A DNA stretch of 64,000 bases, taken from a virus. This document shows, in pieces, positions 4,178 through 52,788 of the stretch; the first letter of the stretch is position 1, and every line of letters begins with the position of its first letter. Below the pieces are notes generated by a model. It searched no databases. It was not told where the DNA came from and saw only the letters and a list, made by a program, of their open reading frames with translations. The DNA is taken from positions 7,275-71,274 of the IMG/VR virus record IMGVR_UViG_3300017971_000280. One strand, given 5' to 3'. The translations under genes were made by a program, and so were the position numbers.

Positions 4178-4183
4178 CAGCGT

Positions 4184-4946: not shown

Positions 4947-4962
4947 GATGTTCATAACGTTC

Positions 4963-5310: not shown

Positions 5311-5373
5311 CAAAGGCAACGCTTGGTATAGTACGGTATGGTAATATGCTGTCGTTAACCTTCAATTACGGTA

Positions 5374-17648: not shown

Positions 17649-17658
17649 AGGAGAGGAT

Positions 17659-21554: not shown

Positions 21555-21555
21555 T

Positions 21556-22638: not shown

Positions 22639-22639
22639 T

Positions 22640-29885: not shown

Positions 29886-29903
29886 GAATAGGTGAAAATA
29901 AAA

Positions 29904-30824
29904 ATGGACGAACAAAAGTTTAAAGAAGCTGTTGCTCAGATAGCAAAAAGTGATAAGAGAGCACTGGCTGAACTTATTGTCGAATACGTTGACCCTAAGC
30001 ATGTTACTCAGGACATCGTAGGTATGTTCCTAAATACTAGGAGCTTAAATCCTGGTGATGCTCTAGTAAAGAAAGTTAGAAGGGGTATTGAAGTTCGTCA
30101 GTTAGTTCCTGGTCAGGATACTCTTGCTAGCCAAATCACAGTGAAAGAAGTTGTAACTTACAACTTGGACACAGCTTACGCAGAAGTTGCCCACAATGAG
30201 TGGGAGGTAGAGTCAGGTGAAATTGGCACTGTTGACGAAATAAGACGTGAGATGATGGCGAAACTGTCAGACTTTTACGTTGTTAAGGTTATGAATGCGT
30301 TATATACGTTAGCTACGATTAACGATAGCACAAACTTCTGGTATGTTACCGCTCCTATAACAAGAAGCACACTAGAAGATGCTATTGATAGCATTGCTGA
30401 TATAGCTGGAAATGTCAAGGCTGTGGTTGGTAGAAGGACTGCTTTAGCTCCTATCACAAAGTTCGCTGGATATAGGGTTGGCGTTGGTGCTACCGAGGCG
30501 GCTGGTTCAGCCGTACCTGTATCAAGTGCTCTGGAAGAGATTAGGAGAACTGGTTGGTTTGGCATCTACTACGGTGCAAACTTCATCAGCTTAGAGCAAG
30601 TCTATGACAACCCATATGACAGAAACGGATTAATCAAGGATAACCTAATAACCGTGATTGGTGATAATTGTGGTGAGTTTATTACTTACGGAGACGTAAG
30701 GGAAGACCAGTGGACCGATATGGTTACTGCTCCTCCAACTTGGCACATTAGAATCTATCAACAGTTCGGTCTCCTATTTGACCGTATGGAAAATGTGGGC
30801 ATCATAAGAACTGACTCACCGTAA
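29904..30824 (+). CDS. Major capsid protein
   Basis: About 306 aa at the expected position; G.Y.G..I..L pattern; AGGTGA SD before ATG 29904. Confidence 0.7.
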   Translation: MDEQKFKEAVAQIAKSDKRALAELIVEYVDPKHVTQDIVGMFLNTRSLNPGDALVKKVRRGIEVRQLVPGQDTLASQITVKEVVTYNLDTAYAEVAHNEWEVESGEIGTVDEIRREMMAKLSDFYVVKVMNALYTLATINDSTNFWYVTAPITRSTLEDAIDSIADIAGNVKAVVGRRTALAPITKFAGYRVGVGATEAAGSAVPVSSALEEIRRTGWFGIYYGANFISLEQVYDNPYDRNGLIKDNLITVIGDNCGEFITYGDVREDQWTDMVTAPPTWHIRIYQQFGLLFDRMENVGIIRTDSP

Positions 30825-34168: not shown

Positions 34169-34595
34169 ATCAACTAAGGATGCTATTAGGAATGCAATTG
34201 GTCAAGTAGTTACATTCATAATTCGTGGTGACCAATCAGCATGTCCAGTATGTAGCGGGTTAGATTTATATGATGAGGTTAATGAGGTTAGTCTTGACCC
34301 ATATTGCACGACATGTTCAGGTCAATACTGGATAACTGCCGATGTTTACTCTGGTGTGATGGCTCACGTAAGATGGAGAACACAAGACCAACCAGATATG
34401 GGAGTTGGTGGAGAAACTTTTGATGGTGACTGTATGATTACCATTGATATAAATGCTCTTTCAGAGGCTAATATTGTCAAGGTAAAAGAAGTAATAGCGG
34501 ATTCACGTAAGTTACAAATATACAGAGCTATACATAGAGGAGTCCCAACAAGGGATAGAATCAGATTTGTATGCAGAGAATTTGGGAAGGAGTAA
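34143..34595 (+). CDS. Probable head-closure/neck protein with zinc-binding insert
   Basis: CPVC...CTTCSG; gene position. Confidence 0.5.
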   Translation: MTITFPATKSTKDAIRNAIGQVVTFIIRGDQSACPVCSGLDLYDEVNEVSLDPYCTTCSGQYWITADVYSGVMAHVRWRTQDQPDMGVGGETFDGDCMITIDINALSEANIVKVKEVIADSRKLQIYRAIHRGVPTRDRIRFVCREFGKE

Positions 34596-37097: not shown

Positions 37098-38297
37098 GTG
37101 AGTAAAAGAATTGCTGTCCCTTACAAGGACGTAAAATTAAGGATAGTAGGACCAAAAGCTGACTTCTATGCCTACCGTGTTCAACGTCTAGATATACCTG
37201 TTACGCTACCTAACACTACAATTAACGAACTTGGTAACCCAGGTCACGCAGGAATTGTGACAGACCTTCCTGAAGTGACTGCAACTTTCCAAGCGTTCGA
37301 TGTTTCACACAAGATATTTGCTATCTTGGTTGGTGAAGATGTTGACGCATATCCTGCTTCTGGTGTGGATGTTGCAAATCTTGGTTACGTTGACTTGGTT
37401 GGTTATGTAAAAGAAGCAACTGTCGCTGAAATGTTGAAGTGTATCCATGCTAAGTATATGAGAATTACTGACTTCACGTTCACGTACACAGTTGATGGTG
37501 AAAGCACAGAGGAATATAGTTGTGCTGGTAGTGAAAAGAGGTATTTTGCTAATGATGTTGTAGTGGATTCTGGTTACTTGGATGCTAATGGACAGATGAC
37601 TCTTTCTTATAGTCCAAATCAATTGAAGAATTCTGATTACTTGTTAAGTTTCATTGTTGATGGAGACTGGAAAGAAGAGACTACGTTTGCGGCACTTGCA
37701 AGTGACAAGTATTACGTTAGCGGCACTACCGTAACATTGAGTGGTGGTACTGCGGCTGACTATGCTTTAGCTGTGTATCATACACAGAGTGGAGTTCTAG
37801 CATGGACTAACATCTCTGACAGTACTGTTCCAGCCGCTATTCGTGGTAAGAACATTCCTGTTACGATTGGTGTTGAGTCAATGTACAGAGTTCAGAGTGT
37901 AACAATTAGAGGTACGTTCCCTAATACTAAGGTTATGGAAATGGGTAACACCTCAGTTGTTGGTTACGTTGTAGACCCACCTGACATCAGTGGAGACATT
38001 ACCGTTCTTGATACAGATAATGAAATCGTTGCTCTGTTGACAACTGGTAATAAAGATGATGGTGATGGTTATGGTGAGTATGGTGTAGACGAGTATGAAG
38101 AGAGAACGTTAGCATTGGCAATCCAATTGAAAGACCCTGCTGACAATACCACAGTCCAGAAGACAGTTCAGATTCCATATATGAGAATTACTTCAGATGG
38201 AACAACTTCAAATGTTGGTGGTCAGTTAACACAAACATTCTCATTCATGTCTAATGATGCACAATGTATCGTGTACTCTGGTGGAATTCCAGCATAA
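37098..38297 (+). CDS. Major tail (tube) protein
   Basis: RVQ....ELGN motif occurs twice; precedes chaperones and tape measure; GGAGGT SD. Confidence 0.7.
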   Translation: MSKRIAVPYKDVKLRIVGPKADFYAYRVQRLDIPVTLPNTTINELGNPGHAGIVTDLPEVTATFQAFDVSHKIFAILVGEDVDAYPASGVDVANLGYVDLVGYVKEATVAEMLKCIHAKYMRITDFTFTYTVDGESTEEYSCAGSEKRYFANDVVVDSGYLDANGQMTLSYSPNQLKNSDYLLSFIVDGDWKEETTFAALASDKYYVSGTTVTLSGGTAADYALAVYHTQSGVLAWTNISDSTVPAAIRGKNIPVTIGVESMYRVQSVTIRGTFPNTKVMEMGNTSVVGYVVDPPDISGDITVLDTDNEIVALLTTGNKDDGDGYGEYGVDEYEERTLALAIQLKDPADNTTVQKTVQIPYMRITSDGTTSNVGGQLTQTFSFMSNDAQCIVYSGGIPA

Positions 38298-38370
38298 ACA
38301 GTAGAATAGGAAAAGTATAGGTCATCCTATCAAAAGATTAAAGGAATTTGATATACGTATCAGATTATTA

Positions 38371-38421
38371 GGGGAGTCTTTGATGGCGATTATTCAAAAT
38401 CGTTACATGGACTCCCCTTTA
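38371..38421 (+). terminator. Long hairpin GGGGAGTC...GACTCCCC followed by TTT
   Basis: Outer 8-bp stem plus inner ATGGCGATT/AATCGTTAC stem. Confidence 0.5.
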
Positions 38422-38444
38422 TTATTATAAGAGAGGAAAGGAAA

Positions 38445-39137
38445 ATGGGAAAATTATCAAAACTTTTTAGATGGCACAGAAAAGTAGAAATCAGAGAAGG
38501 AGACAAGGTTCTTGAGACAGTATATGTGAGACTTGTTGGAGATGCTGAGTTCCAAGAAGCTAAAATTGCGGCTTTAAAACGTAGTAAGCAATTGAGAACC
38601 CAATTAAGGAATAAGGATTCCAATGATTATCAGGCAAGTTTTTCTGACTTGGATTCTCTGACAAGAGATGAGTTAACTATGGGAATCACCTTTGGTGAAA
38701 TCCCTGACTATAGGGATGAAGGTTTGCTTACACTTCCAGAGAGAGAAGTACCAGAGCTACCCGATAATCCTACTCTAGAGCAACAAGAAGAGCACGAAAC
38801 CAAGTTAGAAGAGCTACAAGCTGAAAGAGCTAAAACTCTTACTGAGTTTATTGAGAAACGAGCGGAAGAAAGAAAAGAAGAGATTGGAAAAGTTGAGGAC
38901 ATAGATAAACTGCGTGAGATGTATGTACATTCTGTCATCAATATGAAATGTAGTGAAGAGTTTACTAGAGCGTTCAGAGAGTATCAGGTTTTCAAGGGAA
39001 CTTTTGCAGATAATAAGTTCAAAACTCTAGCTTTTGATGATTTTGATGATTTTGATGGGTGTGCTCCACAACTGAAAAGTCAATTGATTTCGGCATACGT
39101 CAGTCTAGAGATGACAGGGGAAGACTTAAAAAACTAG
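38445..39137 (+). CDS. Tail assembly chaperone (gpG-like)
   Basis: Between tube and tape measure genes; ends at a slippery site. Confidence 0.75.
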   Translation: MGKLSKLFRWHRKVEIREGDKVLETVYVRLVGDAEFQEAKIAALKRSKQLRTQLRNKDSNDYQASFSDLDSLTRDELTMGITFGEIPDYRDEGLLTLPEREVPELPDNPTLEQQEEHETKLEELQAERAKTLTEFIEKRAEERKEEIGKVEDIDKLREMYVHSVINMKCSEEFTRAFREYQVFKGTFADNKFKTLAFDDFDDFDGCAPQLKSQLISAYVSLEMTGEDLKN

Positions 39138-39430
39138 CTGAGGACAATGCGTTTGTGGGGGTTTGGCGTATTGTCAAAGAGTTAAATTATCCTCTTCATG
39201 AAAGTTTACGTGGTCTATCTGTATTCGAGTACCCCCACACTTTCAGTTACGTGATAAAGAGACGAATGCAGTTAGACTCCTACCTAGAACTACCCGAAGA
39301 GAAACGTCCTCCTCGTTCAATTTGGGACAAACCATCAGAACTTGACGAATGGTTCAACAGAATATTCTCTGATGGAGAAAAACAAACCGAGTTTAGTCTT
39401 CCTGTAAATGAAGATGAAATCGAGAGGTAA
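39128..39430 (+). CDS. -1 frameshift extension of the tail chaperone (gpGT-like)
   Basis: A-AAA-AAC heptamer at 39128-39134 just before TAG; -1 frame stays open to 39430. Confidence 0.8.
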   Translation, partial: KKLAEDNAFVGVWRIVKELNYPLHESLRGLSVFEYPHTFSYVIKRRMQLDSYLELPEEKRPPRSIWDKPSELDEWFNRIFSDGEKQTEFSLPVNEDEIER

Positions 39431-39435
39431 AGTAA

Positions 39436-42400
39436 ATGGCATTATTCCAGTTTGGTCAGTCAGCATTCAATGCTAAAGCACAACAGCAAGCGTTAGATGC
39501 GACAGCACTAAAATATGACAAGTTATCTATGGCGGCTGGAAGAGCGGCAACTGAAACCGCTTCATTCACTGATGCCACTGGTCGTGGTAGAATCACGATG
39601 GAGAACTTTGGTAGAACGTTTGATAACGCTACAAGAAAGGTTCTTATCTGGCAGTTTGCTATCATGGCTGTGTACGGAGCTATCCGTAAGATTGGTGAAA
39701 CAATCCAAACATGGAAAGACTTGGAAGTTACATTAGCTAGAATCAGTATTACAACGAGTGCTCTTGGTTCAAGACTACAGGCATATTTCAAAGAGGTTGC
39801 TGATGTTGCTATCAGCTTCGGTATGCCAATCGAGCAGACTTTAACTGGTATGGACTTAGCATTGAGAGCTACTGCTAGGTATTCAGAACAAGCGAATAGG
39901 GGTGCTATAGCTGTTAGTTTGTTGAGTTCTGCTTCTGCTCTTGCTAACATTACTGGTATGCAATATAGTCAGTCTATTGACATCTTGGTTGGTTCTTTGA
40001 GACAGTCAGGTATGGAACTAGACCAAGGTATTGACTTACTTGATAAGTGGGTAGCTGTAGCTAAGAATGCGGCTGTGTCTGTTAACGACCTTTCACAAGG
40101 TTTTGCTATTATGGCTGATGCTGGTAGAGCGGCTGGTCTTTCTGTTGACCAAATTAACGGTTTGATTGCGGCTTTGAGCGAAACTGTTACCTTGGGTCCA
40201 GTTGAGATTGGTAATGCTATTAGAGCTTTAATGTCAACCTTGTATAATCCAGGTTCTATTTCTTTACTACAAAAGTATGGTGTTGCGGTTAGAGATACCT
40301 CTGGTGAAGTTAGGAGCTTTTGGGAAGTCATGCAACAACTTTCATCTATGAGAGTAGCTAACGTAATGGATGAATCAGTTTGGTTAGAAATAGCTAAAGC
40401 GGCTGGTGCTGGTCAAAGACGTTACGCTCAGTTCTTGGCTTTACTTAACAACTTCTCAACTGCTATGCGTGTTGCGAAGATTAGTTCTAATGCTGAAGGG
40501 CAAGCAATGGAAGCTAACAGAAAGATTGTTGATACCTTGACTAACACATGGGATAAGTTCACAGCGGCACAACGTAAATTCCTGTTTACAATGGGTGAAC
40601 AAACAGGAGCAATTGAAGACCTAACAAGTGCTATACAGGGATTGGCTAACTTCTTTGACATGCTTTCTAATGCAAGTGATGGTGTGTATAAGCTTGGTAG
40701 GGCTGTTATGTTCTTGGTTGGTACTCTTGGTGCTTTAAAGATTGCAACTCTTGCTATGGGATGGATGGGAGTCGGTCCTAAAGTTGGAGCATTGATGGGT
40801 AGATTTGCTGGTGTACCTCCGACTGCTGTCGCTGGTTCTGCGGCATATGCTAGAGCAGTTCAAGCAGGTGGATTTACAAGTGCTCAACAAGCGGCACAAG
40901 CAGGTCTTGGAACAGTAGCTCCAGGATTATCTTCACAAGCTGGTTTATATGCTCTATCAGGATTACTTCCTTCATTCATGTTCAGAAAACTGTGGGGTGC
41001 TGGTCCTGCACCAACAGTACCAGGTGCGGAAAACGTATTTAGACCAGGTGGTGGACAATATGTTGGTGGAAAGTGGATGCCAGGTGGTGGACGTTGGACT
41101 GCTCCTACTGTTGCTCCCATGACGTGGGGTGGAGCGGCAAGAGGTGTTGGTGGATGGTTAACGAGACCTATGGGTGGAATGGGAAGAGCCGTAGGTGGAC
41201 TAGCTATGGGTGCGGCGGCATATGGTCTAACTGGTGAATGGCAGTCTGCTGTAGGTGCTGGTATTGGTTCAGCAATTGGAGCTTCATTCGGTCCTCTTGG
41301 TATGGTTATTGGCGGTGGTATCGGTACTTTAATAGGACATACGGCGGCAGATGCCTTCATTTCAAGAGAAGACAGACTAAGAGCAGTTTTTGAGAAGATG
41401 GCAGAAGACTTCACCCTAGACCTATCTGATGTGATGGATAGATATTTCGAACAAGCGGCAAAGGAGACAGGAGAAGATGCTAGACGTGCGGCGGCACTTG
41501 CCGCACCTAAGATGGCTGAAGCTAGAGCGGCAGAAGCACAACCATTCTGGAAAAGACTTCTAGCTGGTGTTCAACTTGGTGAAGCTAGATTAGGATGGTC
41601 ATTAAGTGGTGAAGCGGCATTTACTCCATTTGGTCGTACAGACGAAGAAGAGTGGAAGAGGGGTCTTGGTGGTCTTAATGAGTTAAACCAAGCTCTTGTT
41701 GATGGTGTTATCACAATTGATGAGTATAGGAGAGCTAAACAATCTGACCATATTGCTTGGCAAGAATTAACGGATGATGCCAAAGCATACATGACTGCCA
41801 TTCGTGGTACAAAAGTTGCTATTGGTGAAGAGCTTGCGGCATTTGAAGCTATAGCTACTGCTATACCAGAGCAAATAGCACAAAAAAGAGAATTAGCATC
41901 AATTACAAATAGATACAGTGAATCACAGTCTAGAATTAAGCAAATTATGCTAGAAACTGGTGCGGTTATTGATGGTATGTCTCTTAAAGAGTGGGAGCAA
42001 GCTAAAGTATCACAACTTCTTGCTGACCAGGTTAATAAAACTGCTGAGGATTTCCAAGCTTGGTATAACGTTCTGCTTGGTTCAGCTTATGGTTATGCTT
42101 CTCATGTGGAAGCTATCCAACAATTAAAACCACTTCTTGCAGAATATGGATTAGCTATTGATAGAATTCCAGAGGATAAGTGGTTAATGATTCAGAGATG
42201 GGACCCTCAGTTAGCTACCGATATTGTCCAAACTATAGGTACATTGTTAGAGCTTAATGACGCTATTGATAAGTTCCAAGTTACGTTCCCTGATATGTTA
42301 AGACTTGCTAATATTGAAGGAACAATTAGTGATATTGATAGGGTAAAGGAAGCACTTCTAAAACTTCATGAAGAGACTGGTGACGAGAAGTATGCTAATG

Positions 42401-43182
42401 CCCTTGAGCAAATAGACCAATATCTAGGAAATGTTCTCCAGAAAGAAATTGAAGCTAGGAGAGTAACAACCTATGCTGGTAGAGGTGCGGAGTTCCAAAG
42501 ACCTACACAGGTCAGGTTAGTTGATGCCGAAACCATTAAAGCATACAGAGAGAATCTTGGTAGATTACCAGCGTTCACTGATATGGCTAAGAGTCTAGGC
42601 AAGACTGCTGATTCTGTATTAACATTGGTTGACCCACTAACTGGTGAAATGCTTAGGTTAGAGGAAAATACTCTAGCTTTGGAGATGTTAGGTCGTATCG
42701 TTGGGGAAAATACTTCTGTTCAAGAGAAGAGACTAGAAGCAGAGTATAATCTACCAGGATGGTATCAGAGACCTAACAGATATATGGCTTTGAGACAAAC
42801 AGGTGGTGCTGGTGGTTTCGGTCCAGCACAAGAAGGTCTGTGGGGAACTTGGTTAGAGTTTGTGAGAAACAGAAGTATGCAGACTGGCGGTACTGTTCCC
42901 GAAACTGGACCTTATTATCTACACAGGAGAGAAGTTGTTGTTTCAGGTGAGACGTTAACAAGCACTAATGTTCTTTTGGGAAATTCTTATAGAGTGCTCC
43001 TATCATCACAGCAATATTTGTCAAATATTAACCTTGGAATCCTTGGGGTGAGACAAGAAATTCAGCAATTAAGACAGCAATTGCTGGCATCAAGGACGGC
43101 TGAAGAAGGTACTACAGATTTTGGTAGAATAACGAAGGCTGAATATCTTGGTGTGAGTTCTTTGGGAGTAAGGAGAAAGTAA
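39436..43182 (+). CDS. Tail tape measure protein
   Basis: 1248 aa, Ala/Gly-rich; TP901-like core (GNAIRALMS.L, IAKAAGAG.R). Confidence 0.9.
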   Translation: MALFQFGQSAFNAKAQQQALDATALKYDKLSMAAGRAATETASFTDATGRGRITMENFGRTFDNATRKVLIWQFAIMAVYGAIRKIGETIQTWKDLEVTLARISITTSALGSRLQAYFKEVADVAISFGMPIEQTLTGMDLALRATARYSEQANRGAIAVSLLSSASALANITGMQYSQSIDILVGSLRQSGMELDQGIDLLDKWVAVAKNAAVSVNDLSQGFAIMADAGRAAGLSVDQINGLIAALSETVTLGPVEIGNAIRALMSTLYNPGSISLLQKYGVAVRDTSGEVRSFWEVMQQLSSMRVANVMDESVWLEIAKAAGAGQRRYAQFLALLNNFSTAMRVAKISSNAEGQAMEANRKIVDTLTNTWDKFTAAQRKFLFTMGEQTGAIEDLTSAIQGLANFFDMLSNASDGVYKLGRAVMFLVGTLGALKIATLAMGWMGVGPKVGALMGRFAGVPPTAVAGSAAYARAVQAGGFTSAQQAAQAGLGTVAPGLSSQAGLYALSGLLPSFMFRKLWGAGPAPTVPGAENVFRPGGGQYVGGKWMPGGGRWTAPTVAPMTWGGAARGVGGWLTRPMGGMGRAVGGLAMGAAAYGLTGEWQSAVGAGIGSAIGASFGPLGMVIGGGIGTLIGHTAADAFISREDRLRAVFEKMAEDFTLDLSDVMDRYFEQAAKETGEDARRAAALAAPKMAEARAAEAQPFWKRLLAGVQLGEARLGWSLSGEAAFTPFGRTDEEEWKRGLGGLNELNQALVDGVITIDEYRRAKQSDHIAWQELTDDAKAYMTAIRGTKVAIGEELAAFEAIATAIPEQIAQKRELASITNRYSESQSRIKQIMLETGAVIDGMSLKEWEQAKVSQLLADQVNKTAEDFQAWYNVLLGSAYGYASHVEAIQQLKPLLAEYGLAIDRIPEDKWLMIQRWDPQLATDIVQTIGTLLELNDAIDKFQVTFPDMLRLANIEGTISDIDRVKEALLKLHEETGDEKYANALEQIDQYLGNVLQKEIEARRVTTYAGRGAEFQRPTQVRLVDAETIKAYRENLGRLPAFTDMAKSLGKTADSVLTLVDPLTGEMLRLEENTLALEMLGRIVGENTSVQEKRLEAEYNLPGWYQRPNRYMALRQTGGAGGFGPAQEGLWGTWLEFVRNRSMQTGGTVPETGPYYLHRREVVVSGETLTSTNVLLGNSYRVLLSSQQYLSNINLGILGVRQEIQQLRQQLLASRTAEEGTTDFGRITKAEYLGVSSLGVRRK

Positions 43183-43183
43183 G

Positions 43184-43591
43184 ATGGCTACAATAACTAG
43201 ATGGCAATTTGACATTGGTGGTTCGTATGAATATGCTTTTCCACGAAATCCAGATAGGTATGGTGGAGATAGTGGTTGGATATATGAACCTAGAATGGCT
43301 GAAATGGAAGTTGTTGGTTCTAACCAACCTTATCTTCAGATTGATGGGTTTTCTGGAGCAAGGAGAACTATACGATTTACTGCCATAACTGGTACAATGT
43401 CACGTAAATTACAGGACTTCTTTTTAAGAAAAACCATTATATATACTTGTAGAGACCATCTATATCCTACTCATGCTCAGTTCAATTGTTTCATCATCTC
43501 TTTTTCTCAACAGGTGCATCCAACTACAGGTAGTTTTCCTGGTTCTGGTGAAGATACTTATGACGTAGAGATGACGTTAGTTAAGATGTAA
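43184..43591 (+). CDS. Probable distal tail protein
   Basis: 135 aa directly after the tape measure; Y.F.RNP. Confidence 0.55.
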   Translation: MATITRWQFDIGGSYEYAFPRNPDRYGGDSGWIYEPRMAEMEVVGSNQPYLQIDGFSGARRTIRFTAITGTMSRKLQDFFLRKTIIYTCRDHLYPTHAQFNCFIISFSQQVHPTTGSFPGSGEDTYDVEMTLVKM

Positions 43592-43593
43592 TT

Positions 43594-45210
43594 ATGGGAA
43601 TAGCTGAAGAATATGCAAAAAGGGTAAAGACACCTATCATAAAGGTGACAGTTACCAAATTTATTGAGGGTGAGAAACCAGGTGTAGAGAATCAAGGGTA
43701 TGATTATTACCCTGAAGTAATTACTTGCGACATAACTTATGGATTTGACCAAGCAAGTACAACCTGTACACTGGAACTAAAAACTCCGCTTGATGAAAAT
43801 GGTGATTATGTTCGTTTTGCCCCGATGAATAGAGTTAAAGTCGAGCAGGGATGGAACAAACCATCAACATATAGAATTACGTTTTTTGGTTTCATTGATA
43901 AGGTAGAATATGCTAATCCACCCAAAACGGTTAGATTAGAATGCCGTGACATCCTGAAGTTGGCACAAGATAATTACTATATTCATGGTAATAGGAGAGT
44001 ATACTCAGCAATTCCAGCAGAGAGTGAGTTGGATGACAGTGGTAATCCTATGGGTGGGCAGGCTGTTGAAGACAGACAAGCTCAAGAGATTATTACTGAT
44101 TTTATGACAGATAGTGGTATTCCTGAAACCAGACTCCATCTTGATTTTGAGACATATCCCGCTTCTGGTGCGATTGTTATTGGTAACAACGCTGTAGCTG
44201 TATTTGTATATGAGTCCGCTATGGATGCTTGTACTCGTATTACTGACCTTATCGGATACCGTATATGGGCAGATAAAGGTGGTCACGTTCAAGCTAGGGA
44301 AATAAGACCAATCGGTTCATCAACCCCATCTTTGACGTATCGGAGTCAAGAGGAAGCATATGCTGGAGACGGTTCGTGGACGGTTACTCAATCAGGTAAT
44401 CTATTAGCTCTTAGTGCAAGTAGAGACGATGATTTAAGGAATTGGGTTACAGTTTATGGTTATGATGGAATAAACACTACAGTTGCGGGTGAATCTGATT
44501 ATGTACCTTCCCCACCTACATATAGAAGAACTGAGATTAGGTCATATTTATTAGACACTCCAGAGTTACTTGTTACTGTGGCTAGTGGAATTTATAATGA
44601 CTTGAACAGATTAAGATATACTGCTAGAGCAACCATTGAAGGTGACCCAAGACTTGAGATTGGACAAACAGTTCGTCTATATGACTCTCATGTGATGACG
44701 GACACCATTGACTATTTCTTATACGACTACACTAGCTCTTTAAGAGCAGGTGTGTGGACTATGGAAATGACCTTAGTTGGTGGTGTTGGTGCTGGTACAG
44801 AAGGTTCACCACCAATTGCTAATATTGCTCCTGTAGCCATGTTTATATACAGAGTTGAACAAGAATTTCTTGCAGATGGTTCAGCTTTGTTTGATGTTAC
44901 TGTAGATGCTACCCCCTCATACGACCCAAATGGTCCAGTTGAGGAGTTACTCTACACTTGGACATGTTCTGGTTTTGCTACTGCGAGTGGAATTATGCAC
45001 ACGTATTCTTTTACAGAAAGTGGAGTAGCTTATATCACACTTAATGTACAAGACCAAGGTACTCCTCAGTTAAGTAGTGAGATAACACTTCCAGTTACTT
45101 TAGACCCTGGTGAGGGGTTACAATGGAAAACAATTTTTGTCGCTTCAGGAAATTATGTCTACACTTCTGATAACAGTGGAGCAAGCTGGAGAGAACAAGA
45201 ATTATGGTAA
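43594..45210 (+). CDS. Probable baseplate hub / tail tip protein with C-terminal PKD-like domain
   Basis: F.GFID.V, L.CRD, GDPRLEIGQTV; PVA.F...DAT.SYDPNG...YTW. Confidence 0.65.
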   Translation: MGIAEEYAKRVKTPIIKVTVTKFIEGEKPGVENQGYDYYPEVITCDITYGFDQASTTCTLELKTPLDENGDYVRFAPMNRVKVEQGWNKPSTYRITFFGFIDKVEYANPPKTVRLECRDILKLAQDNYYIHGNRRVYSAIPAESELDDSGNPMGGQAVEDRQAQEIITDFMTDSGIPETRLHLDFETYPASGAIVIGNNAVAVFVYESAMDACTRITDLIGYRIWADKGGHVQAREIRPIGSSTPSLTYRSQEEAYAGDGSWTVTQSGNLLALSASRDDDLRNWVTVYGYDGINTTVAGESDYVPSPPTYRRTEIRSYLLDTPELLVTVASGIYNDLNRLRYTARATIEGDPRLEIGQTVRLYDSHVMTDTIDYFLYDYTSSLRAGVWTMEMTLVGGVGAGTEGSPPIANIAPVAMFIYRVEQEFLADGSALFDVTVDATPSYDPNGPVEELLYTWTCSGFATASGIMHTYSFTESGVAYITLNVQDQGTPQLSSEITLPVTLDPGEGLQWKTIFVASGNYVYTSDNSGASWREQELW

Positions 45211-45220
45211 GAGGTAAATA

Positions 45221-46414
45221 ATGCCAACATCAATATGGTGGGTTGACCCACCTAGAAGTTATACTGCGGGTGGATATATGACTTATAAGTACCACGATGA
45301 TGAGGTGGATACGGTATATGTTCACAATAACCGCTACTATTCTGGTTTTTGGTGTGTGAAGCAATGGTTCTTCCCACTAGATTTAATCTCTGACCACTAT
45401 GAGTGTTGGACATATCATTTCTTTACAAAATTTAAAGTTCCAACTACAGCAAGTGGTACGCTTGACAGTGCCGAACTTTACTTAATGCTTGGTGGTGCTG
45501 ACTTAGTTATGAATGTTCTTCCCGTATATATGGATATTGATGTTTATTATAAGTCTGTAGAAGATGCCAGTAGTTTCCCTTGGCAGACGCTGGATGAAGA
45601 TGATTATGCTTCACCAACTTGGACAAAAGAGACTTCTATAGAAGACTTTTGGGATATGTGGGGAGATTTCATGGTAGAAGGACCACATTGGTTAGACCCT
45701 GTTACTGTGACATCTGGAGTTCAAAAAGCTATAGATGAGGGGTGGGAATGGATTGCTTTTAGGTTTACTCCAAATTATCTTACACCTCTAGACTATGATT
45801 GGGACAACCGACCTACACCATATGACCAATTATGTTGGGTTGCCTTCTATGGTCCAGTTAATCCATATTGGGTAGAGTCACCATCTGGATTTCCAGAAGA
45901 TGCGTGCTCTCCTTGCCCTTGGTTGAAAATTACCTATGCTACTGCTTCTGGTGAAGACCCACCACCTGACCAATGGGTGCCAGGTGAAGATGTTACTACA
46001 TCAGGTGAGGGTTCTACTGTTAATTGCATAGCGGCAGACCCCAAAGCAAAGATGGCTATTGCTGGTACTGAAAGTGGTAACTTGTGGTATTGTTGGAGCG
46101 GTGGTGGAGTATGGGATAAGATAGTAGATGGGGACGAACCTATAACTGCTGTTCATATGGACTTTCTAAGAAACTTTCAAGATTACCCATACGACCAAAT
46201 TTCTTGGTATGGGACACAAAGCGGCAATTTGTATAAGAGTATAGATTCTCTCGGTAGCTTTGAGCTTATGAAAAACTTCTCAATCAAAGTAGTGGAGATT
46301 ATGTCAAGCGACCAAGATTCAGATAAAGTGGTGGTAGGAGTTCTAGATGGAATTTGGACTTCTGTGGATGGTGGAGTTACTTGGGTAGAATCTTTAGAAG
46401 CACCAACGGAGTAA
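45221..46414 (+). CDS. Virion tail protein with beta-propeller-like C-terminus
   Basis: S.D.G..W (BNR-like) repeats. Confidence 0.55.
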   Translation: MPTSIWWVDPPRSYTAGGYMTYKYHDDEVDTVYVHNNRYYSGFWCVKQWFFPLDLISDHYECWTYHFFTKFKVPTTASGTLDSAELYLMLGGADLVMNVLPVYMDIDVYYKSVEDASSFPWQTLDEDDYASPTWTKETSIEDFWDMWGDFMVEGPHWLDPVTVTSGVQKAIDEGWEWIAFRFTPNYLTPLDYDWDNRPTPYDQLCWVAFYGPVNPYWVESPSGFPEDACSPCPWLKITYATASGEDPPPDQWVPGEDVTTSGEGSTVNCIAADPKAKMAIAGTESGNLWYCWSGGGVWDKIVDGDEPITAVHMDFLRNFQDYPYDQISWYGTQSGNLYKSIDSLGSFELMKNFSIKVVEIMSSDQDSDKVVVGVLDGIWTSVDGGVTWVESLEAPTE

Positions 46415-46418
46415 TAAG

Positions 46419-48518
46419 ATGCCAACATTAATAATAGAAACTATACCAGAAGTTCCAGCGAATCGAAATTGGCAACTAAATTATACTATAAATCCTGGTG
46501 GCTCAATGGATTTGGTGAGAGATAATGCCACAGGTACAGAGGGTACAGGAATAGGAGTTGTTCAATGTGCTAAAGGTACTGCCGCATCACCACCATTTTA
46601 TTTTTGGACATTAGCACGTAGTATACTTTGGTTTGACTTATCTGCTTATCCAACACCCCCAGGGGTTGTACAATCAGTCAAGATAAGACTTATGAAAGCC
46701 ACTATTGGTGTATACTATGGTGCAGATTGGGCAAATGATAGTCTTTACGCATTGGATGATGAAGGTAAAGTTCCCACTCAAGCTGATTTAACAAGTGACG
46801 ATTACGGTAAATGGAAGAGTAATAATACTGTCTTAGGTACTATGGCTGGTGTTGATTATGGTGGTGCTGATGCAGGAGGCTACTACATCTACATAACGTT
46901 GAACTCTGCTGGTATAGCTCACTTGAATTGGGGTGGTTTAACCGCTTTTGTATTGAGAACAGCAAAGGATGTTAATAACCTACAAACTCCATTAGAAACG
47001 ACTGGTGAAGCTATGTATGGTTATGATGGACCTACTCATGCTGACCCTCCCGCATTGGTTATCGAGCATTCGGGGCAACCATATTCTGAGTTTAAAGGTC
47101 TATTCTGTCGTGGTGACGAAATTCAAGCAGTTTTTGCAGATGGAAGGGGTTATAGGAGTCCAGATTTTGGAGCAAATTGGTATGCTATGGAAGGTGAACC
47201 AATAACAACAAGAGATGTGGGATTCGATATTCTAAATGAAGAGGAGTCATTCCTTGGTGCTAGTGGACAACTATATCCATTTTTGAGTGCGGCGGGTGAG
47301 ATTTTTACCTATGCGGCAGGAGCTACAGTTAGTGGTGAGGTAACTAGGATTGATGTAGATTGGGATTCTAAGATTGCAGTTGTTGGTACAAGCGAAAAAT
47401 TATACAAGACTCCCGATTTTGGTACGACTGTTTATGAGTACTTGGATAAACCAGTTACCGATGTAGCTTTAGGTGGTAATGAGGTAGCTTTGTATGAAGA
47501 CCCACCAACGAGTGGTTATATCCTTTCGGTTAATGGGGACTGCGACATCTATTACAAGAGTGGCTTTTATGGTTGGAGAGGTCAACCCGACCAACCAACA
47601 GGTTCTTATTGGTTGAACGTTCGTTACAGGAACACAGAGTGGTATCCTAATACTTGGGGATATTTTGCTGGTACTTTCTTATGGAATGATATGAACTTGG
47701 TTACTATCCAAGCCACTTTCACAATGGAAAATCTACCTACAAGTGGATATGCTATTTGTAGTTCTCGTGGAATTGCTGAGGTTAGAGTTCTTAATTATTG
47801 TGGTAGGAGTGCTTATCCTTATGGTCATATGCAGTATGATGTTAAAACTCATGGTGTTCATTATGTGACCGATGAGGATAGTCTTCCTGCTAGTAAGATT
47901 GACCTTAGAGCGGCAGGTATGACTAAGAACCCTAACACTGGACTTGGTTGGACTGCGGACGAAGTTGATGCTATGTGTGCTGGTTGTTATGCTGGTGATG
48001 TGGCAAGCTTTGGTACAGCCGCTCTCGACCAAGTACTTGTTGAGGTTTATCCAGAAGGAGATGGTGTTGATATTGTTGGAGCAACTCCTATAGATAGATA
48101 CGAAGCTCTAGGTTTGGGTAATACACTTCTAAGTCTCGCTCACCCTGCTCCTGCTGATGGTTATGTTCGTAAAGTACAGATTTATCTATATACTGAATGT
48201 ACTAATATTAAAGTTGCTACCTTCTTTAATGTGAGTGGAAATAACTACTCAACGAGAAGTTGGCAAGCATTAACGGGAACATACAGTGCTGGATTCCATA
48301 CACTGAGTGTTAACTTGGAGTGTAGCACTGGAGATTTGATTGGTATTTTCAGCGATGGTATGATTGAAGCTGACGCTACTTGGAATGCCCTTAATATAGG
48401 AGCTTGGAAGGCAGTTGCAGGTGGAGACAAAATTCCTTGTACCAATGAGGAATTTGAAAATGCTAAAACTCAGTTGAACGATATGCTTATATCAATTAGA
48501 GGAATAATTTATCACTAA
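46419..48518 (+). CDS. Multi-domain virion tail / receptor-binding protein
   Basis: RS.L.FDLS pattern, SPDFG repeats, NPNTG.GWT. Confidence 0.55.
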   Translation: MPTLIIETIPEVPANRNWQLNYTINPGGSMDLVRDNATGTEGTGIGVVQCAKGTAASPPFYFWTLARSILWFDLSAYPTPPGVVQSVKIRLMKATIGVYYGADWANDSLYALDDEGKVPTQADLTSDDYGKWKSNNTVLGTMAGVDYGGADAGGYYIYITLNSAGIAHLNWGGLTAFVLRTAKDVNNLQTPLETTGEAMYGYDGPTHADPPALVIEHSGQPYSEFKGLFCRGDEIQAVFADGRGYRSPDFGANWYAMEGEPITTRDVGFDILNEEESFLGASGQLYPFLSAAGEIFTYAAGATVSGEVTRIDVDWDSKIAVVGTSEKLYKTPDFGTTVYEYLDKPVTDVALGGNEVALYEDPPTSGYILSVNGDCDIYYKSGFYGWRGQPDQPTGSYWLNVRYRNTEWYPNTWGYFAGTFLWNDMNLVTIQATFTMENLPTSGYAICSSRGIAEVRVLNYCGRSAYPYGHMQYDVKTHGVHYVTDEDSLPASKIDLRAAGMTKNPNTGLGWTADEVDAMCAGCYAGDVASFGTAALDQVLVEVYPEGDGVDIVGATPIDRYEALGLGNTLLSLAHPAPADGYVRKVQIYLYTECTNIKVATFFNVSGNNYSTRSWQALTGTYSAGFHTLSVNLECSTGDLIGIFSDGMIEADATWNALNIGAWKAVAGGDKIPCTNEEFENAKTQLNDMLISIRGIIYH

Positions 48519-50041
48519 TGGGAATTACAAGACGAGAAGCCAAAGAAATTGTTGATTGGGTTATCCAAGAGATAATGAGACGTAGGTTTCCCTATGTTAC
48601 TGATGGGAAATTAGATTTAAGTAAATCTCCTGTTGGAACTGTCTCTGGAACTCAAACTTCTGGTGGTCCTATTGCTGAAAGTGCAATATGGGACCGTCAT
48701 GTAGCTCCTGATGCCGATATTAGGGGAACTAAAATAAGAGTAGCCACAACCGCAGAACGTGGTACTGTTCAACTTGGGACTGAGGGTGAGGCTCTAGTTC
48801 CTACTATGTCTGGTTTACTCTCTACTGTTAGTGGTCTTGGTGCTAGTTTAGTTGGTATTTATGATGGTGAGGGAGAATTTGTTAGTGAAGACGTTGAATC
48901 AGCCTTACATGAATTATTTGCGATTATTGGAGCTTTAACATTTGTAGACTTAACAGATACGCCTAGCAATTATACAAATAGATACCCACAAGTTCCAACC
49001 ATCATTGCTAGTGAAGCTGGTTTAGAGTGGAGACCAGTAGATTACTATGATGGTGAGAGTGTTCTTACTACCGTCTCTGGTGCTGTTACTATAAGGCGTG
49101 AGAAAGCGATTGATGCTGAATCTGCTACGATGGACAACATTCTTGATGGTGGTCTTGCGACTGATGTTGATGAAATTGAGCATGTTAACGGTCTTGGTGG
49201 TGAGGTTACAATAGTTGGTGGTGGAATAAATGTTGTTAGTTTGGTTGGGCAGAGCATAGTAATAACTGCTACGGAAACTCCAGATGTATCATCTTTAAAT
49301 GGATTAGTGAATGATGTTCTAATATCTGGTCAAGGATTAGTAGGTGTTAGTGAGGTAGGTCAGACAATTGTTCTAAATGTTGATAATCTTCCTGATGTTG
49401 ATTCTCTTAATGGACTTACTGGAGTCGTAGTCTTGTCTGGTGAGGGAACAGTTCATATTAGTGAAGATGGACAAATCATAGTTATCTCTGGTTCAGATGA
49501 ACCTTATCGTTCTTATTGGGATGACCTTCGTACACCTGTTAATATGTTAAAGTTCAGTGATACCAAACCTCCAGTATGGACATCTTACAAAGGTGGTTAT
49601 GTTGCGGCTTTTGAAGACCAAGCTGTTAACTATCAATCATTATATTGGGCATGGCAGTTGCCCCACGAATGGGAAATAGGAACTGCTGTTGTTCCACATA
49701 TCCACATTGTCCCTGAAGACGGTGGTGCGGGAAATGTTCATTGGGAATTTACGTATTCTATCGCTAAAAAAGGTGCTACTTTCCCCGTAGAAAGTACTAT
49801 ACATATCACACAAGCGATGCCAGAACAAGCAGATGAGCACACCTACTTTGAACTTGTAACTATTAGTGGAGTAGAGCTTGGCACTGATCCAGAAGACATA
49901 TCAACTATGTTGTTGTGTAGTTTATCTCGTAGGTCAGACCAACCAGAAGATACGTACGCTGGTAAAGATGTGTATTTGCTTGAGGTGGATATGCACTATT
50001 TGAAAGATTCGTGGGGAAGTCGCTTAGAGTTAAGTAAGTAG
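48518..50041 (+). CDS. Tail fibre-like protein
   Basis: Repeated SLNGLTG.V and L.DTP fibre motifs. Confidence 0.65.
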   Translation: MGITRREAKEIVDWVIQEIMRRRFPYVTDGKLDLSKSPVGTVSGTQTSGGPIAESAIWDRHVAPDADIRGTKIRVATTAERGTVQLGTEGEALVPTMSGLLSTVSGLGASLVGIYDGEGEFVSEDVESALHELFAIIGALTFVDLTDTPSNYTNRYPQVPTIIASEAGLEWRPVDYYDGESVLTTVSGAVTIRREKAIDAESATMDNILDGGLATDVDEIEHVNGLGGEVTIVGGGINVVSLVGQSIVITATETPDVSSLNGLVNDVLISGQGLVGVSEVGQTIVLNVDNLPDVDSLNGLTGVVVLSGEGTVHISEDGQIIVISGSDEPYRSYWDDLRTPVNMLKFSDTKPPVWTSYKGGYVAAFEDQAVNYQSLYWAWQLPHEWEIGTAVVPHIHIVPEDGGAGNVHWEFTYSIAKKGATFPVESTIHITQAMPEQADEHTYFELVTISGVELGTDPEDISTMLLCSLSRRSDQPEDTYAGKDVYLLEVDMHYLKDSWGSRLELSK

Positions 50042-50049
50042 GTGAAATT

Positions 50050-50925
50050 ATGGCAACAAAAATATATTTAAGAAGAGGAACACGTACCGAGATTTTGGCT
50101 ATTGTTCCTGAAAGTGGTGAACCAGTTTGGGCTACAGATATTAAAAAGTTGTATATAGGTGATGATACAACCTCTGGTGGTATTTACGTTGGTGGTTTGG
50201 CAGGTCAAGTAGAATCTCTTAATGGGTTAACTGGTGTAGTTACAGTTTCGGGAATAAACGGTATAACTGTATATGAAGATGGACAAGTCATAGTTGTTTC
50301 AGGATATGATGAGTTTATTGAACTTTTGGATACGCCTGCCAGTTATGCGGGGGAAGGTGGAAAATTTGTTAGAGTAAATGCCACTGAAGATGGAGTAGAA
50401 TTTGTAGCCGAGACCAGTGCTTTTACTGGTTTAACAGACACACCAGCCAGTTTTTCTGGTTCATCAAGAAAAGTTGTTGCCGTTAATGCTGGTGAGTCCG
50501 CTTTAGAGTTTATCAAGAGAATAAATGTTGAGGAAGAATTAACATCAGACCATGACTATGCTGGTTTAGTATGTAGTGGTGTTGCGGGTGAAGAATTGGT
50601 ATTTGGTGAAGTAGCTTACTTTGCAAGTGATTTGACATGGTATAAAACAGATGCAGACGAATACAATAAAACTGCTGGTCATATAGCCATAGTTGGTTCA
50701 GGAGCGGGTGCGGCAGGCGTACTAGAGTTATTGTTACTTGGGTATATAAGAGATGATAGTTGGTCTTTCAATCCAGCAAGCGGTTTGTTTGTATCTACCA
50801 CTGCTGGAGATATGACAACAACTCCACCACCTGCGGCTGGTGATTTCATCAGGAGAGCAGGGTATGTCCACAAGGCAACTATTGTTTACTTCTGTCCTGA
50901 CGGTACGGTATTAGAGAGGAGTTAA
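50050..50925 (+). CDS. Fibre protein with Mtd-N-like amino terminus
   Basis: KIYLRRGT....P..GEP.W.TD.KKLYIGD; L.DTPAS repeats. Confidence 0.65.
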   Translation: MATKIYLRRGTRTEILAIVPESGEPVWATDIKKLYIGDDTTSGGIYVGGLAGQVESLNGLTGVVTVSGINGITVYEDGQVIVVSGYDEFIELLDTPASYAGEGGKFVRVNATEDGVEFVAETSAFTGLTDTPASFSGSSRKVVAVNAGESALEFIKRINVEEELTSDHDYAGLVCSGVAGEELVFGEVAYFASDLTWYKTDADEYNKTAGHIAIVGSGAGAAGVLELLLLGYIRDDSWSFNPASGLFVSTTAGDMTTTPPPAAGDFIRRAGYVHKATIVYFCPDGTVLERS

Positions 50926-50926
50926 A

Positions 50927-51946
50927 ATGCCTACAACTACATTCAATAAGTGTGTTGGACACGATGATAGACAAAATATAACTGCGGGTGTTACTGCTAA
51001 TGAGTGGCACACAGAGGATATGACTGCTTATGGTGTACCTGCGGGTGCGGCTGGTGCTATACTAGAATTTACGACTAGCTCTGGTTCTACCTCTAACTTA
51101 TGTGGTGTAAGACATCCAGATTCTAGCGGAAATTATAGAAATTATATTTACACTAATTCTCATGTCTGGCTTATTGCCCCTTTAGATGCTTCTGGTAATG
51201 CGGAGATTTGGAGGTCATCTGCTCTTAGTGTTTATGTACATGGTTATATTGCGGCAGATGGTGGTGTTACACTCACAGAAAGAGTTACTAAGTCAATGAC
51301 TGATGAGTATACTTGGGAAGACATTGATTGTTCTGCTCAAGCTCCTGGAGCAGTAGCACTTATCTTTGAAGCTGAGACCTCTTATCCAAATGCTGGTACT
51401 ATTGGTTATAGAAAGAAAGGGTCTACTGACACGTATACTGGTTCTCTTAGGTATCACATGGGATTTATTGTTGCTTGCGATAGCAACCAAATTTGCCAGA
51501 TTTATAGACAGAGTTCAGTGTCCGTTTATCTAATAGGTTATATTACAGAATCAGATGATACTCAGTTCAACATGCTTACAAATTGGTCTAACAAAACACC
51601 TCCTACTACTAATGAAACCGAGATGGATTGTTCAGATGTGAGTGTGGTAAATTCAACTTGGTTCTTTGTGTGTACACCAAGTGCTAATACTTTGGTTAGT
51701 GGAAGACCTGATTCGGATTATGGTTTTGATTACAAGGTTGCAAGCGGTCCTGAAGCACTCTATACTCCTTGTGCAGTTCTTAGAAGTTTCTTAGCAAGGA
51801 GAGCGGGTGGGGCGATATACTATGAAGGATGTGCGGCAGAACCACCAACAGGTCCAGGTATCACAAGCGTGGATGGTATAGTGGGAATTGCTAGTGTAGA
51901 CAATATTTCATGGGGTGGTTTGGCTACAATTGATGGTGTAGGATAG
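50927..51946 (+). CDS. Virion structural protein with two tandem related domains
   Basis: W...D....P.GA...I.E / G.R..(D/G)S occurs twice. Confidence 0.55.
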   Translation: MPTTTFNKCVGHDDRQNITAGVTANEWHTEDMTAYGVPAGAAGAILEFTTSSGSTSNLCGVRHPDSSGNYRNYIYTNSHVWLIAPLDASGNAEIWRSSALSVYVHGYIAADGGVTLTERVTKSMTDEYTWEDIDCSAQAPGAVALIFEAETSYPNAGTIGYRKKGSTDTYTGSLRYHMGFIVACDSNQICQIYRQSSVSVYLIGYITESDDTQFNMLTNWSNKTPPTTNETEMDCSDVSVVNSTWFFVCTPSANTLVSGRPDSDYGFDYKVASGPEALYTPCAVLRSFLARRAGGAIYYEGCAAEPPTGPGITSVDGIVGIASVDNISWGGLATIDGVG

Positions 51947-51961
51947 GGGAGGTAGAAAAAT

Positions 51962-52276
51962 ATGTTGAGGTTTTTGAGTTCGATGGCTAAACAAACAGAT
52001 ATTATTGACATTGTGGAGCTTACACCTGATGAGGTGATAGCAAAAATCAATTCCGCAACTGTTCCAGTAACTAGGGCTAATGCTATAGATGCTCAAACTA
52101 TCTTTGACTGGCAGGATGTCATCTTTGCATTGAGAGATGCTTGGAGGGGCAAACCTGAAAGGGATAGAGGAGTCATTTTTAGCGAACCTGTTAGTGGTCA
52201 AATGGTGGTAATTGATATACATAAGAGGGCAGATGGTCAATATGAATTTACTTATGATGATGAACCTATAGTGTAA
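51962..52276 (+). CDS. Hypothetical protein
   Basis: GGAGGT SD; ORF track. Confidence 0.65.
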   Translation: MLRFLSSMAKQTDIIDIVELTPDEVIAKINSATVPVTRANAIDAQTIFDWQDVIFALRDAWRGKPERDRGVIFSEPVSGQMVVIDIHKRADGQYEFTYDDEPIV

Positions 52277-52305
52277 ATTAATAACTTGACTTTCTTGGGG
52301 GCGAC

Positions 52306-52788
52306 ATGGCAAGGGACGTGTTAAATAACATTGATAAGGTACGTAGCCCCGAAGATGCTAGTAGTCATAAAGTCAGTGTAAAGTATGTCTTCAATCCAGA
52401 GACAGGGGAGTTTTATCCAGAGAGTAGTGACTTGTATTCTGGTACTCCAGTACTTCATAGGGAAAACGTCACTCAAGTGGATACTGGAAGTCCTGATATT
52501 ACTGCTGGATTAGACTGTTTAGGTTGGAAACGTTGTAGATTTGATGTCAGCGTTGTTGGAGAAAATATCACCCTGTTAAAAGTTGGAGTTCTAAGATGGA
52601 ATACTACTACTTCGGGTTGGTTTTATCCTAGTACAACGTTGGATTTAACTGATAGTGAATGTTTTACAATTAGTGGTGGAGATATATGCTTAATAGAGGA
52701 CGAGGCATTCGGGGCTACGATTTTCTTGAAGGTTTTTGATTTTCAGGGGTCAAACTTTTGCCTAAATTGTTGGGCAATTCTGTGCTAG
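52306..52788 (+). CDS. Hypothetical protein, probably structural
   Basis: ORF track. Confidence 0.65.
   Translation: MARDVLNNIDKVRSPEDASSHKVSVKYVFNPETGEFYPESSDLYSGTPVLHRENVTQVDTGSPDITAGLDCLGWKRCRFDVSVVGENITLLKVGVLRWNTTTSGWFYPSTTLDLTDSECFTISGGDICLIEDEAFGATIFLKVFDFQGSNFCLNCWAILC

Follow-up and report, generated by a model that had tools for sequence, protein, structure and literature searches.

Serine-specific enrichment of a T-x-S-G motif in the tail proteins of a large uncultured siphophage: a candidate O-glycosylation acceptor site

The 64,000-base stretch of virus DNA analyzed here (bases 7275-71274 of the 71,274-base IMG/VR record IMGVR_UViG_3300017971_000280; hereafter, the window) encodes a set of tail proteins in which the dipeptide Ser-Gly (SG) and the longer motif Thr-x-Ser-Gly (T-x-S-G or TxSG) occur far more often than expected. 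A previous inspection of the sequence (the original prediction) had noticed this excess in five proteins and proposed that the motif is the acceptor site of a sequon-directed glycosylation system encoded by the phage. The excess is real, arises at the protein level, is restricted to the tail and is specific for Ser. The motif, usually in the form T/V/P-x-S-G, belongs to a group of large (133-153 kb) uncultured siphophages. The G+C content of the window is about 39%, and its long open reading frames (ORFs) all lie on the plus strand.

The tail region starts with a gene for a 399-aa protein (37098..38297) labeled as the putative major tail (tube) protein by position alone, upstream of a chaperone pair and the tape measure gene. 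The protein has no match in Pfam or PHROG; it contains 7 SG (2.2 expected), including PASG88, TLSG215, and TQSG231. Two overlapping ORFs of 230 and 123 aa (38445-39430) immediately precede the tape measure gene, in the layout typical of frameshifted tail assembly chaperones. The 1248-aa tape measure protein (39436..43182) was said to be poor in SG, and indeed it has 5 against 7.3 expected and no TxSG. The next protein (135 aa, 43184..43591), a putative distal tail protein by position, is 41-81% identical in relatives and has 3 SG (0.8 expected), one of them in PGSG. The 538-aa baseplate hub of the gp27/gp44/VgrG type (43594..45210) carries a C-terminal PKD-like domain and was identified by PHROG 1887 and by Foldseek matches to hub and VgrG structures (E 1e-20 to 1e-9), using an AlphaFold2 model with a predicted local distance difference test score (pLDDT) of 91.3. 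It contains 10 SG (2.9 expected), with five TxSG and a PASG.

Downstream of the hub gene are two genes for tail-tip proteins. The first protein (397 aa, 45221..46414) has no Pfam or PHROG match, and its C-terminal part is probably formed by BNR/Ycf48-type blades; it contains 9 SG (2.3 expected), including five TxSG. The only family match of the second protein (699 aa, 46419..48518) is a sub-threshold one to BNR_6 (E 0.14); it has 7 SG (4.1 expected), with TVSG and two PTSG. In two relatives, G004 (L028 reverse strand, 2663-5440) and G006 (L039:11636-14146), the homologues of the first protein are fusions of 925 and 836 aa, respectively; the extra part of the G004 fusion resembles the second protein, and in the window the two are separate ORFs. 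These genes are followed by those for a 507-aa fibre protein (48518..50041) with copies of a fibre repeat of about 33 aa, 9 SG (4.1 expected) and five TxSG, and for a 291-aa fibre or receptor-binding protein (50050..50925) with PHROG tail matches, the same type of repeat and 8 SG (2.6 expected). The N-terminus of the latter resembles Pfam Mtd_N, the Bordetella phage tropism determinant domain, scoring 25.7 bits, just below the cut-off of 26.3. The three remaining ORFs of the tail region, starting at 50927, 51962, and 52306 (50927..52788), have no family match; they contain 5, 1, and 3 SG, respectively, with TSSG, PVSG, TTSG, and TISG. A Pfam search of six tail and neighboring proteins at E up to 5 yielded nothing usable.

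The counts of the original prediction were reproduced exactly. The five proteins it named (ORFs 37098, 43594, 45221, 48518, and 50050) contain 7, 10, 9, 9, and 8 SG, 43 in total, and 11 occurrences of the reverse dipeptide GS (1+4+2+2+2); 19 of the SG are part of T-x-S-G, in which all ten listed variants were found, and four are part of P-x-S-G (PASG three times and PESG). The further instances were also found, namely TLSG in ORF 31501, TCSG in ORF 34143, TVSG and two PTSG in ORF 46419, and TTSG and TISG in ORF 52306. In composition-preserving shuffles (5000 per test), the same five proteins are expected to have 14.07±3.46 SG (z 8.4) and 1.23 T-x-S-G (z 16), and none of the 5000 shuffles reached either observed count. 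Thus, as had been claimed, composition alone is insufficient to explain the excess. The GS count is close to its expectation of 14.03, and the four P-x-S-G (0.66 expected) were reached in 27/5000 shuffles. When all ten tail ORFs are considered, SG occurs 62 times (23.5 expected), T-x-S-G 23 times (2.1), and P-x-S-G eight times (1.09), each with 0/5000 shuffles. SG is the most over-represented dipeptide, with z 7.95 against 2.8 for the runner-up. Thr occupies position -2 in 23/62 SG sites, compared with 0-13% for the other X-Gly or Ser-X dipeptides examined.

An artefact of composition, of a DNA word or of repeat copies is hardly credible as the source of this signal. The repeats do contribute: ORFs 48518 and 50050 have a common 35-aa repeat module (63% identity, E 1e-9), so that the five proteins are not the "otherwise unrelated" ones they were taken for, and the fibre counts of some relatives consist mostly of tandem copies. 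However, repeat copies account for only part of the fibre counts and not for the remainder. Without the two repeat-bearing fibre proteins, the remaining eight tail proteins have 45 SG (16.8 expected, z 7.4) and 16 T-x-S-G (1.5 expected, z 12), again with 0/5000 shuffles each; when the PKD-like and C-terminal part of the hub is removed as well, 40 SG (15.7 expected) and 13 T-x-S-G (1.4 expected) remain. At the DNA level, the Ser codons of SG come from both codon families (AGT 25, TCT 23, AGC 6, TCA 5, TCG 3). Codons ending in T are not generally favored before GGN, as Thr-Gly (TG) is depleted in the tail of the window (17 against 29.3 expected). Mixed Ser codons together with depleted TG point to selection on the protein and rule out a DNA word, just as the shuffles rule out composition.

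The motif is confined to Ser and to the tail. Variants of the motif with another residue in place of Ser are not enriched: in the eight non-repeat tail proteins, T-x-D-G occurs three times (1.6 expected), T-x-N-G is absent (0.96), and T-x-T-G occurs once (1.9), and in the complete tail of the window TxDG and TxNG number 4 (2.1 expected) and 0 (1.1), compared with the 23 TxSG. Outside the tail, 26 larger proteins have 40 SG (39.6 expected, z 0.06) and three T-x-S-G (2.2 expected, z 0.55), and all 85 other ORFs of at least 50 aa together have 77 SG (59.2) and eight TxSG (3.3).

The motif is also specific to the lineage of the window. The tails of other phages show the following observed and expected numbers: in lambda, 32/22.0 SG and 1/1.9 TxSG; in S-CBS4, 90/71.6 and 15/7.3; in TJE1, 36/22.9 and 3/1.8; in Che8, 51/41.1 and 6/3.3; and in SPP1, 8/9.5 and 0/0.7. 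Among 37 unrelated loci with Mtd_N-type fibres (82,722 aa, near-duplicates included), SG occurs 643 times (503.5 expected, 1.28x), GS 570 times, and TxSG 55 times (46.2 expected, 1.2x). Among 150 representatives of the hub family, the ratio of observed to expected SG has a median of 1.40 and a maximum of 3.1, against 3.4 for the hub of the window; TxSG per 1000 residues has a median of 1.27 and a maximum of 7.5, against 9.3. Related loci were collected with a 13-sequence hub alignment, as a 46-sequence hub alignment gave no conserved stretch.

The original prediction further held that the phage has its own glycosyltransferases and sugar genes, and sequence comparisons support this, indicating a GDP-sugar pathway and two GT4 enzymes in the late structural operon. 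Both enzymes were placed in the group-1 (GT-B) glycosyltransferases by Pfam, PHROG, and PDB searches, and they are 32-34% identical to each other. GT4a (26381..27535), the candidate reader of the motif, is encoded between the portal and capsid genes; it matches Pfam Glycos_transf_1 with 48.4 bits (cut-off 26.4) and, over residues 2-368, PDB 3OY2, the chlorovirus protein B736L (E 5e-23). Its paralog GT4b (32858..34168) is encoded in the head-tail module, between the capsid and tail genes, and matches PHROG 2170 (E 1.9e-40), the same Pfam family (33.5 bits, cut-off 26.4), and 3OY2 over residues 6-386 (E 2.5e-23). The end of the GT4b gene overlaps by 26 bases with a gene for a 150-aa protein with two CxxCSG knuckles (34143..34595), which probably form a zinc ribbon. 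The overlap suggests translational coupling, so that the transferase may have the small protein as its partner or adaptor. In the second clade of relatives (clade 2, loci L090-L116, with tube proteins 43-48% identical), GT4b and the small protein form a syntenic pair about 2 kb upstream of the tube gene at all 23/23 loci with enough upstream sequence; the pair is also present in clade 1.

A cluster for GDP-sugar synthesis and glycan tailoring (15473..25720) lies upstream of the GT4a gene. It encodes an Fcl-like epimerase/reductase, a NUDIX protein, Gmd, a GNAT protein, an FkbM methyltransferase, a DegT-type aminotransferase, a C-methyltransferase, and a possible galactosyltransferase. The assignment of Gmd is firm (502 bits, cut-off 415), whereas that of the Fcl-like protein is tentative as its score of 278 bits is below the cut-off of 500. 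Among five relatives, matches to the GDP_Man_Dehyd family are found in G001, G004, and G005 and not in G002 and G003, and both GT4 genes are retained in all five. The combination of a variable sugar cluster with a constant GT4 pair suggests different glycans built on a common scaffold.

The presence of GT4a can be compared with the use of Ser in the motif. GT4a is found in the window, G001-G005, and G007 and is absent from the complete genomes G008 and G009. In G006, a 20%-complete fragment, only the GT4b type was found. As a measure we used the Ser share, that is, the Ser fraction of T-x-[S/D/N/T]-G. Among the carriers of GT4a, it is 0.82 for the tail of the window (TxSG 23/2.1, observed/expected), 0.81 for G004, counted without its hub ORF (17/1.6), 0.75 for G001, G002, G003, and G005 pooled (67/8.8), and 0.47 for all tail proteins of G007 (14/3.2). 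The G006 fragment has a Ser share of 0.63 (17/2.6). In the absence of GT4a, it is 0.38 for the non-fibre tail proteins of G008 (3/1.3) and 0.35 for clade 2 (31/10.8). The 37 unrelated loci, counted irrespective of GT4a, have a Ser share of 0.29, with distinct proteins only being counted (48/41.9). In clade 2 the turn signature is generic, as TxDG (22/9.8) and TxNG (22/6.3) are in excess along with TxSG. These patterns fit the replacement of a generic polar turn by a Ser-only turn in the GT4a lineage. The tail of G007 (L042 77-15697) is divided: its first three proteins have a Ser share of 0.65 and are rich in SG (55 against 25.9 expected; TxSG 13/2.3), and its last three have a Ser share of 0.10 and are rich in DG (SG 6 against 11.5; TxSG 1/0.9; TxDG 6/0.6). 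This split may reflect a mosaic origin of the tail-tip genes.

A possible explanation, to which we give a little less than an even chance, is that the T-x-S-G serines are candidate acceptor sites for a phage glycosyltransferase. The serines, which lie where strands end, in hairpin turns, at helix caps, and in loops, would then receive O-linked glycans in the cytoplasm, while the tail proteins fold or after they have folded. GT4a would probably be the enzyme, using GDP-sugars from the cluster; it would recognize a short strand followed by a turn that opens with the Ser, the Thr lying on the same face two residues before it. The outcome would be a tail coat of methylated or aminated deoxyhexose glycans. 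The more specific claim, that a cytoplasmic GT4 of the 26381 type recognizes T-x-S-G as a genuine sequon for O-glycosylation and coats the tube, baseplate, and fibres with GDP-derived methylated or aminated 6-deoxyhexose glycans, at sites that come and go rapidly like those of animal virus glycan shields, is more tentative, and we consider it somewhat doubtful. In favor of the acceptor role are the specificity for Ser, the restriction to the tail, the turnover of sites with net gain, the mixed structural contexts, the association with GT4a, and the GDP-sugar machinery in the late operon. Mycobacteriophages, whose capsids and tail tubes bear glycans, provide a precedent.

Several observations weigh against the acceptor role. 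The capsid candidate, which would offer the largest exposed surface, is not enriched: as originally counted, it has one SG (0.9 expected), and it has no TxSG. The association with GT4a rests on one or two phylogenetic contrasts, and G007 has GT4a and yet is DG-rich in its last three tail proteins. GT4b-like genes are found in the structural regions of S-CBS4, TJE1, G014, G016, and G017, none of which has a Ser-specific excess; hence GT4b is not linked to the motif. Thus, the comparison of relatives with and without a transferase goes in the predicted direction for GT4a, in one or two contrasts, and reveals no link for GT4b.

Other such observations concern the sites themselves. In the relatives, the fibre module forms long tandem arrays with the pattern ...SLNGLTGxV-TISG-xGxVxVSEDGQxIVV-SG-xD. 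After the anchor LNxLxGxV, the next four residues are TISG in 59/105 copies and T[ILV]SG in 76/105 copies from 57 fibre proteins, and 47 database homologues of ORF 50050 contain 450 SG (177 expected), 147 GS, and 148 TxSG (18.2 expected). In the hub, residues ~430-505 align to PKD repeats of proteins that match PKD_4 with E 0 to 1e-85 (the hub itself matches only REJ in Pfam, at E 0.0091, below the cut-off), and T-x-[TS]-G is the consensus of the PKD-like repeats aligned to residues 459-477. In the column of S465, 254 sequences have Thr in 105 and Ser in 85 cases, with Gly next in 76% and Thr at -2 in 128. The TCSG of ORF 34143 falls within the two CxxCSG knuckles. Finally, the total of [S/D/N]-G in the tail of the window (101 against 60 expected, ~1.7x) is similar to that in lambda (72 against 46, ~1.6x), and thus Ser may have replaced Asn or Asp at ordinary turns without the creation of new sites.

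Two further observations on these modules were made. Fibres of environmental phages widely share the repeat of about 33 aa (SLNGLTGxVTISG...EDGQxIVVSG), which matches 48 database proteins at E <=1e-5; no Pfam family covers it, and no solved structure is related to it by sequence (window 48518-50925; L016:7946-9298; L027:335-1957). A PDB sequence search with a repeat-rich fibre protein gave spurious calmodulin rows only (E 0.1 or worse), which were rejected.

A rival explanation is purely structural: T/V-x-S-G would be a preferred strand end and turn start of these beta-rich tail proteins, unmodified and inherited with structural modules and through a lineage habit of using Ser in place of Asn or Asp. 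We regard it as possible, at a chance short of even. The motif is indeed in part ordinary structure, namely the fibre repeat with TISG in its consensus, the PKD-like turns, and probable BNR-type blades. For the latter, the C-terminal segments GTESGNLWY and GTQSGNLYK of ORF 45221 resemble BNR/Ycf48-type blades by ESM Atlas rows, all of the Sortilin-Vps10/BNR type; all these rows were under the bar, and the blades are a lead only. According to DSSP assignments on the predicted model of the hub, nine of its ten SG occupy loops, the ends of strands, or a helix cap: residues 267 and 459 are the first coil residues after a strand, 465 and 518 are the last residues of a strand, 476 is the last coil residue before a strand, 174 is a helix C-cap, and 149, 191, and 528 are in longer loops; the tenth, 331, lies inside a helix. 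Thr at position i, Ser at i+2, and Gly at i+3 presumably fit a type I turn with a G1 bulge. Even hub homologues far outside the lineage retain a TxSG excess, which is 2.6x-4.3x in the first 100 representatives and 1.2x in the last 50; in the same vein, the excess of clade 2 is a generic T-x-[S/D/N]-G one.

Yet this explanation predicts an excess of TxDG and TxNG too, and neither exceeds expectation in the window or its close relatives. It also leaves aside the SG at a helix cap and inside a helix, the tail regions of unrelated loci with only slight SG and TxSG excesses, and the signal that persists without the fibre proteins and the PKD-like domain.

The conservation of individual sites bears on both explanations. 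In the tube proteins of 14 relatives, S158, S215, S231, and S394 are invariant, column 88 varies among S/T/A/G/D/E with Gly kept, and column 208 varies among S/T/A/D with Gly kept except in L012, which has V-P and lacks G209. The AlphaFold2 model of the tube, built on a 14-sequence alignment, has a pLDDT of 47.6 and was used for residues 155-228 only. Across five orthologues, the SG sites of the hub are shared by 5/5 (two sites), 4/5 (two), or 2/5 (three), and three are unique to the window. Sites turn over in the tail-tip protein of ORF 45221 as well. The SG serines of the window have a mean conservation of 0.52, other residues that precede a Gly reach 0.72, and the Gly itself scores 0.82 in both cases. 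A conserved Gly with a variable Ser is the pattern expected at turns and speaks for structure rather than for acceptors. The same is true of the enrichment of Asp and Gly, in addition to Ser, in variable columns before a conserved Gly of the tail families (odds ratios (OR) of 2.17 for S, 2.07 for D, and 2.32 for G). On the other hand, the serines are less conserved than other residues before Gly and still far over-represented; strong over-representation, positional instability, and several local structures together are hard to fit to a single structural role.

Ser could also be favored before Gly for another reason, either the avoidance of Asn-Gly and Asp-Gly, which are chemically labile, in virions that persist for long or a different modification, such as phosphorylation, phosphoglycosylation, or acylation; this is unlikely. 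Asn-Gly (NG) is indeed low in the tail of the window (9 against 12.5 expected, and 4 against 10.4 without the fibres), as is the above-mentioned TG, and a metallophosphoesterase gene (32126) adjoins the GT4b gene in clade 1. However, Asp-Gly (DG) is not depleted (30 against 24.0 expected), and avoidance of NG alone can yield neither a 2.6x excess of SG nor Thr at -2. The phosphoesterase is missing from clade 2, and family searches of the Pfam and PHROG type found no protein-acting kinase or acyltransferase in the window.

Overall, sequon-directed glycosylation is neither shown nor refuted. What stands of the proposal is a real, tail-specific, protein-level motif and the GT4 genes in the late operon; on the other side, some of the proteins are related, many sites occupy consensus positions of structural modules, and the capsid is not enriched.

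Genes for a ribonucleotide reductase (9415), a terminase candidate (12410), and the portal (13987) precede the sugar cluster. The capsid candidate (major capsid protein, 29892..30824) was identified by ESM Atlas features that match YonB-like capsid clusters (0.98); it had no sequence match in Pfam or PDB and none to the head protein of S-CBS4. The GC skew is positive throughout the window, at 0.18-0.25 past the first 4 kb. Complete relatives are 133-153 kb long, some with direct terminal repeats, and hence the record is probably about half of a genome. No near-identical phage was found in the INPHARED collection, in which the terminase matched a single distant record.

If the more specific sequon claim is true, no earlier description of a bacteriophage system for sequon-directed protein glycosylation would exist. 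No acceptor consensus for phage protein glycosylation was found in the literature searched, although site maps of mycobacteriophages may bear on this point. If the serines are acceptors, glycosylation of phage virions would reach beyond actinobacteriophages to large environmental siphophages. A readable consensus would make glycosylated phage proteins predictable from sequence and the transferase testable as a tool for site-directed O-glycosylation, and sites that come and go so rapidly would suggest that the tail glycans serve as a shield or in adhesion. If the motif is structural only, it clearly illustrates a shift in the building of virion protein turns that is specific to one residue and common to a whole lineage, and it is a warning that motif enrichment beside glycosyltransferase genes is no evidence of a sequon.

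Several known systems can be compared with the one described here. Eukaryotic proteoglycan xylosylation uses a Ser-Gly acceptor with acidic flanks; it is Golgi-based and depends on another enzyme family. The likeness is in the dipeptide only, and no homologue was seen in the window. Like the motif, ordinary beta-turns and the PKD consensus place a Ser or Thr ahead of a conserved Gly where a strand passes into a turn, but ordinary turns also use Asp and Asn, as in clade 2 and lambda, whereas the window lineage uses nearly all Ser. The autotransporter heptosyltransferases Aah and TibC, which act on AIDA-I and TibA, provide an example of cytoplasmic O-glycosylation of many Ser and Thr residues in beta-rich repeat proteins. 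They differ in the enzyme family, as the phage enzymes are Glycos_transf_1/B736L-like, and in the sugar, which is heptose; no sequence consensus has been reported for Aah. The likeness lies only in the proposed mode of action of the enzyme. The chlorovirus proteins B736L/A546L are the best solved relatives of both GT4 enzymes (E ~1e-23), and a virus-encoded cytoplasmic binder of GDP-mannose matches the GDP-sugar pathway of the window. According to an excerpt of PMC9614988, B736L binds GDP-mannose, its acceptor is unknown, and the capsid glycans of chloroviruses, unlike the O-linked ones considered here, are N-linked at atypical sequons.

Among phages, virion glycosylation is known from mycobacteriophages. 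In Che8, Corndog, and Myrna, the subunits of the capsid and of the tail tube are reported to carry glycans at their C-termini (Freeman et al., 2023, as cited in an excerpt of PMC12619734). This contrasts with the dispersed internal turns and the non-enriched capsid of the window and counts against the acceptor role. In addition, the tail of Che8 differs from that of the window in having no SG excess and little TxSG excess. The major capsid and major tail proteins of Che8 (L034 5051-5872 and 7613-8422) end in KTGS and SDGS, that is, in the reverse dipeptide; the C-terminus of the capsid candidate of the window is ...IIRTDSP, and that of the tube is ...VYSGGIPA, where all 14 aligned tubes have S394-G395. 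The two cases are alike in that the phage-encoded glycosyltransferases lie in or near the structural operon and that a glycan coat is proposed to include the tail tube.

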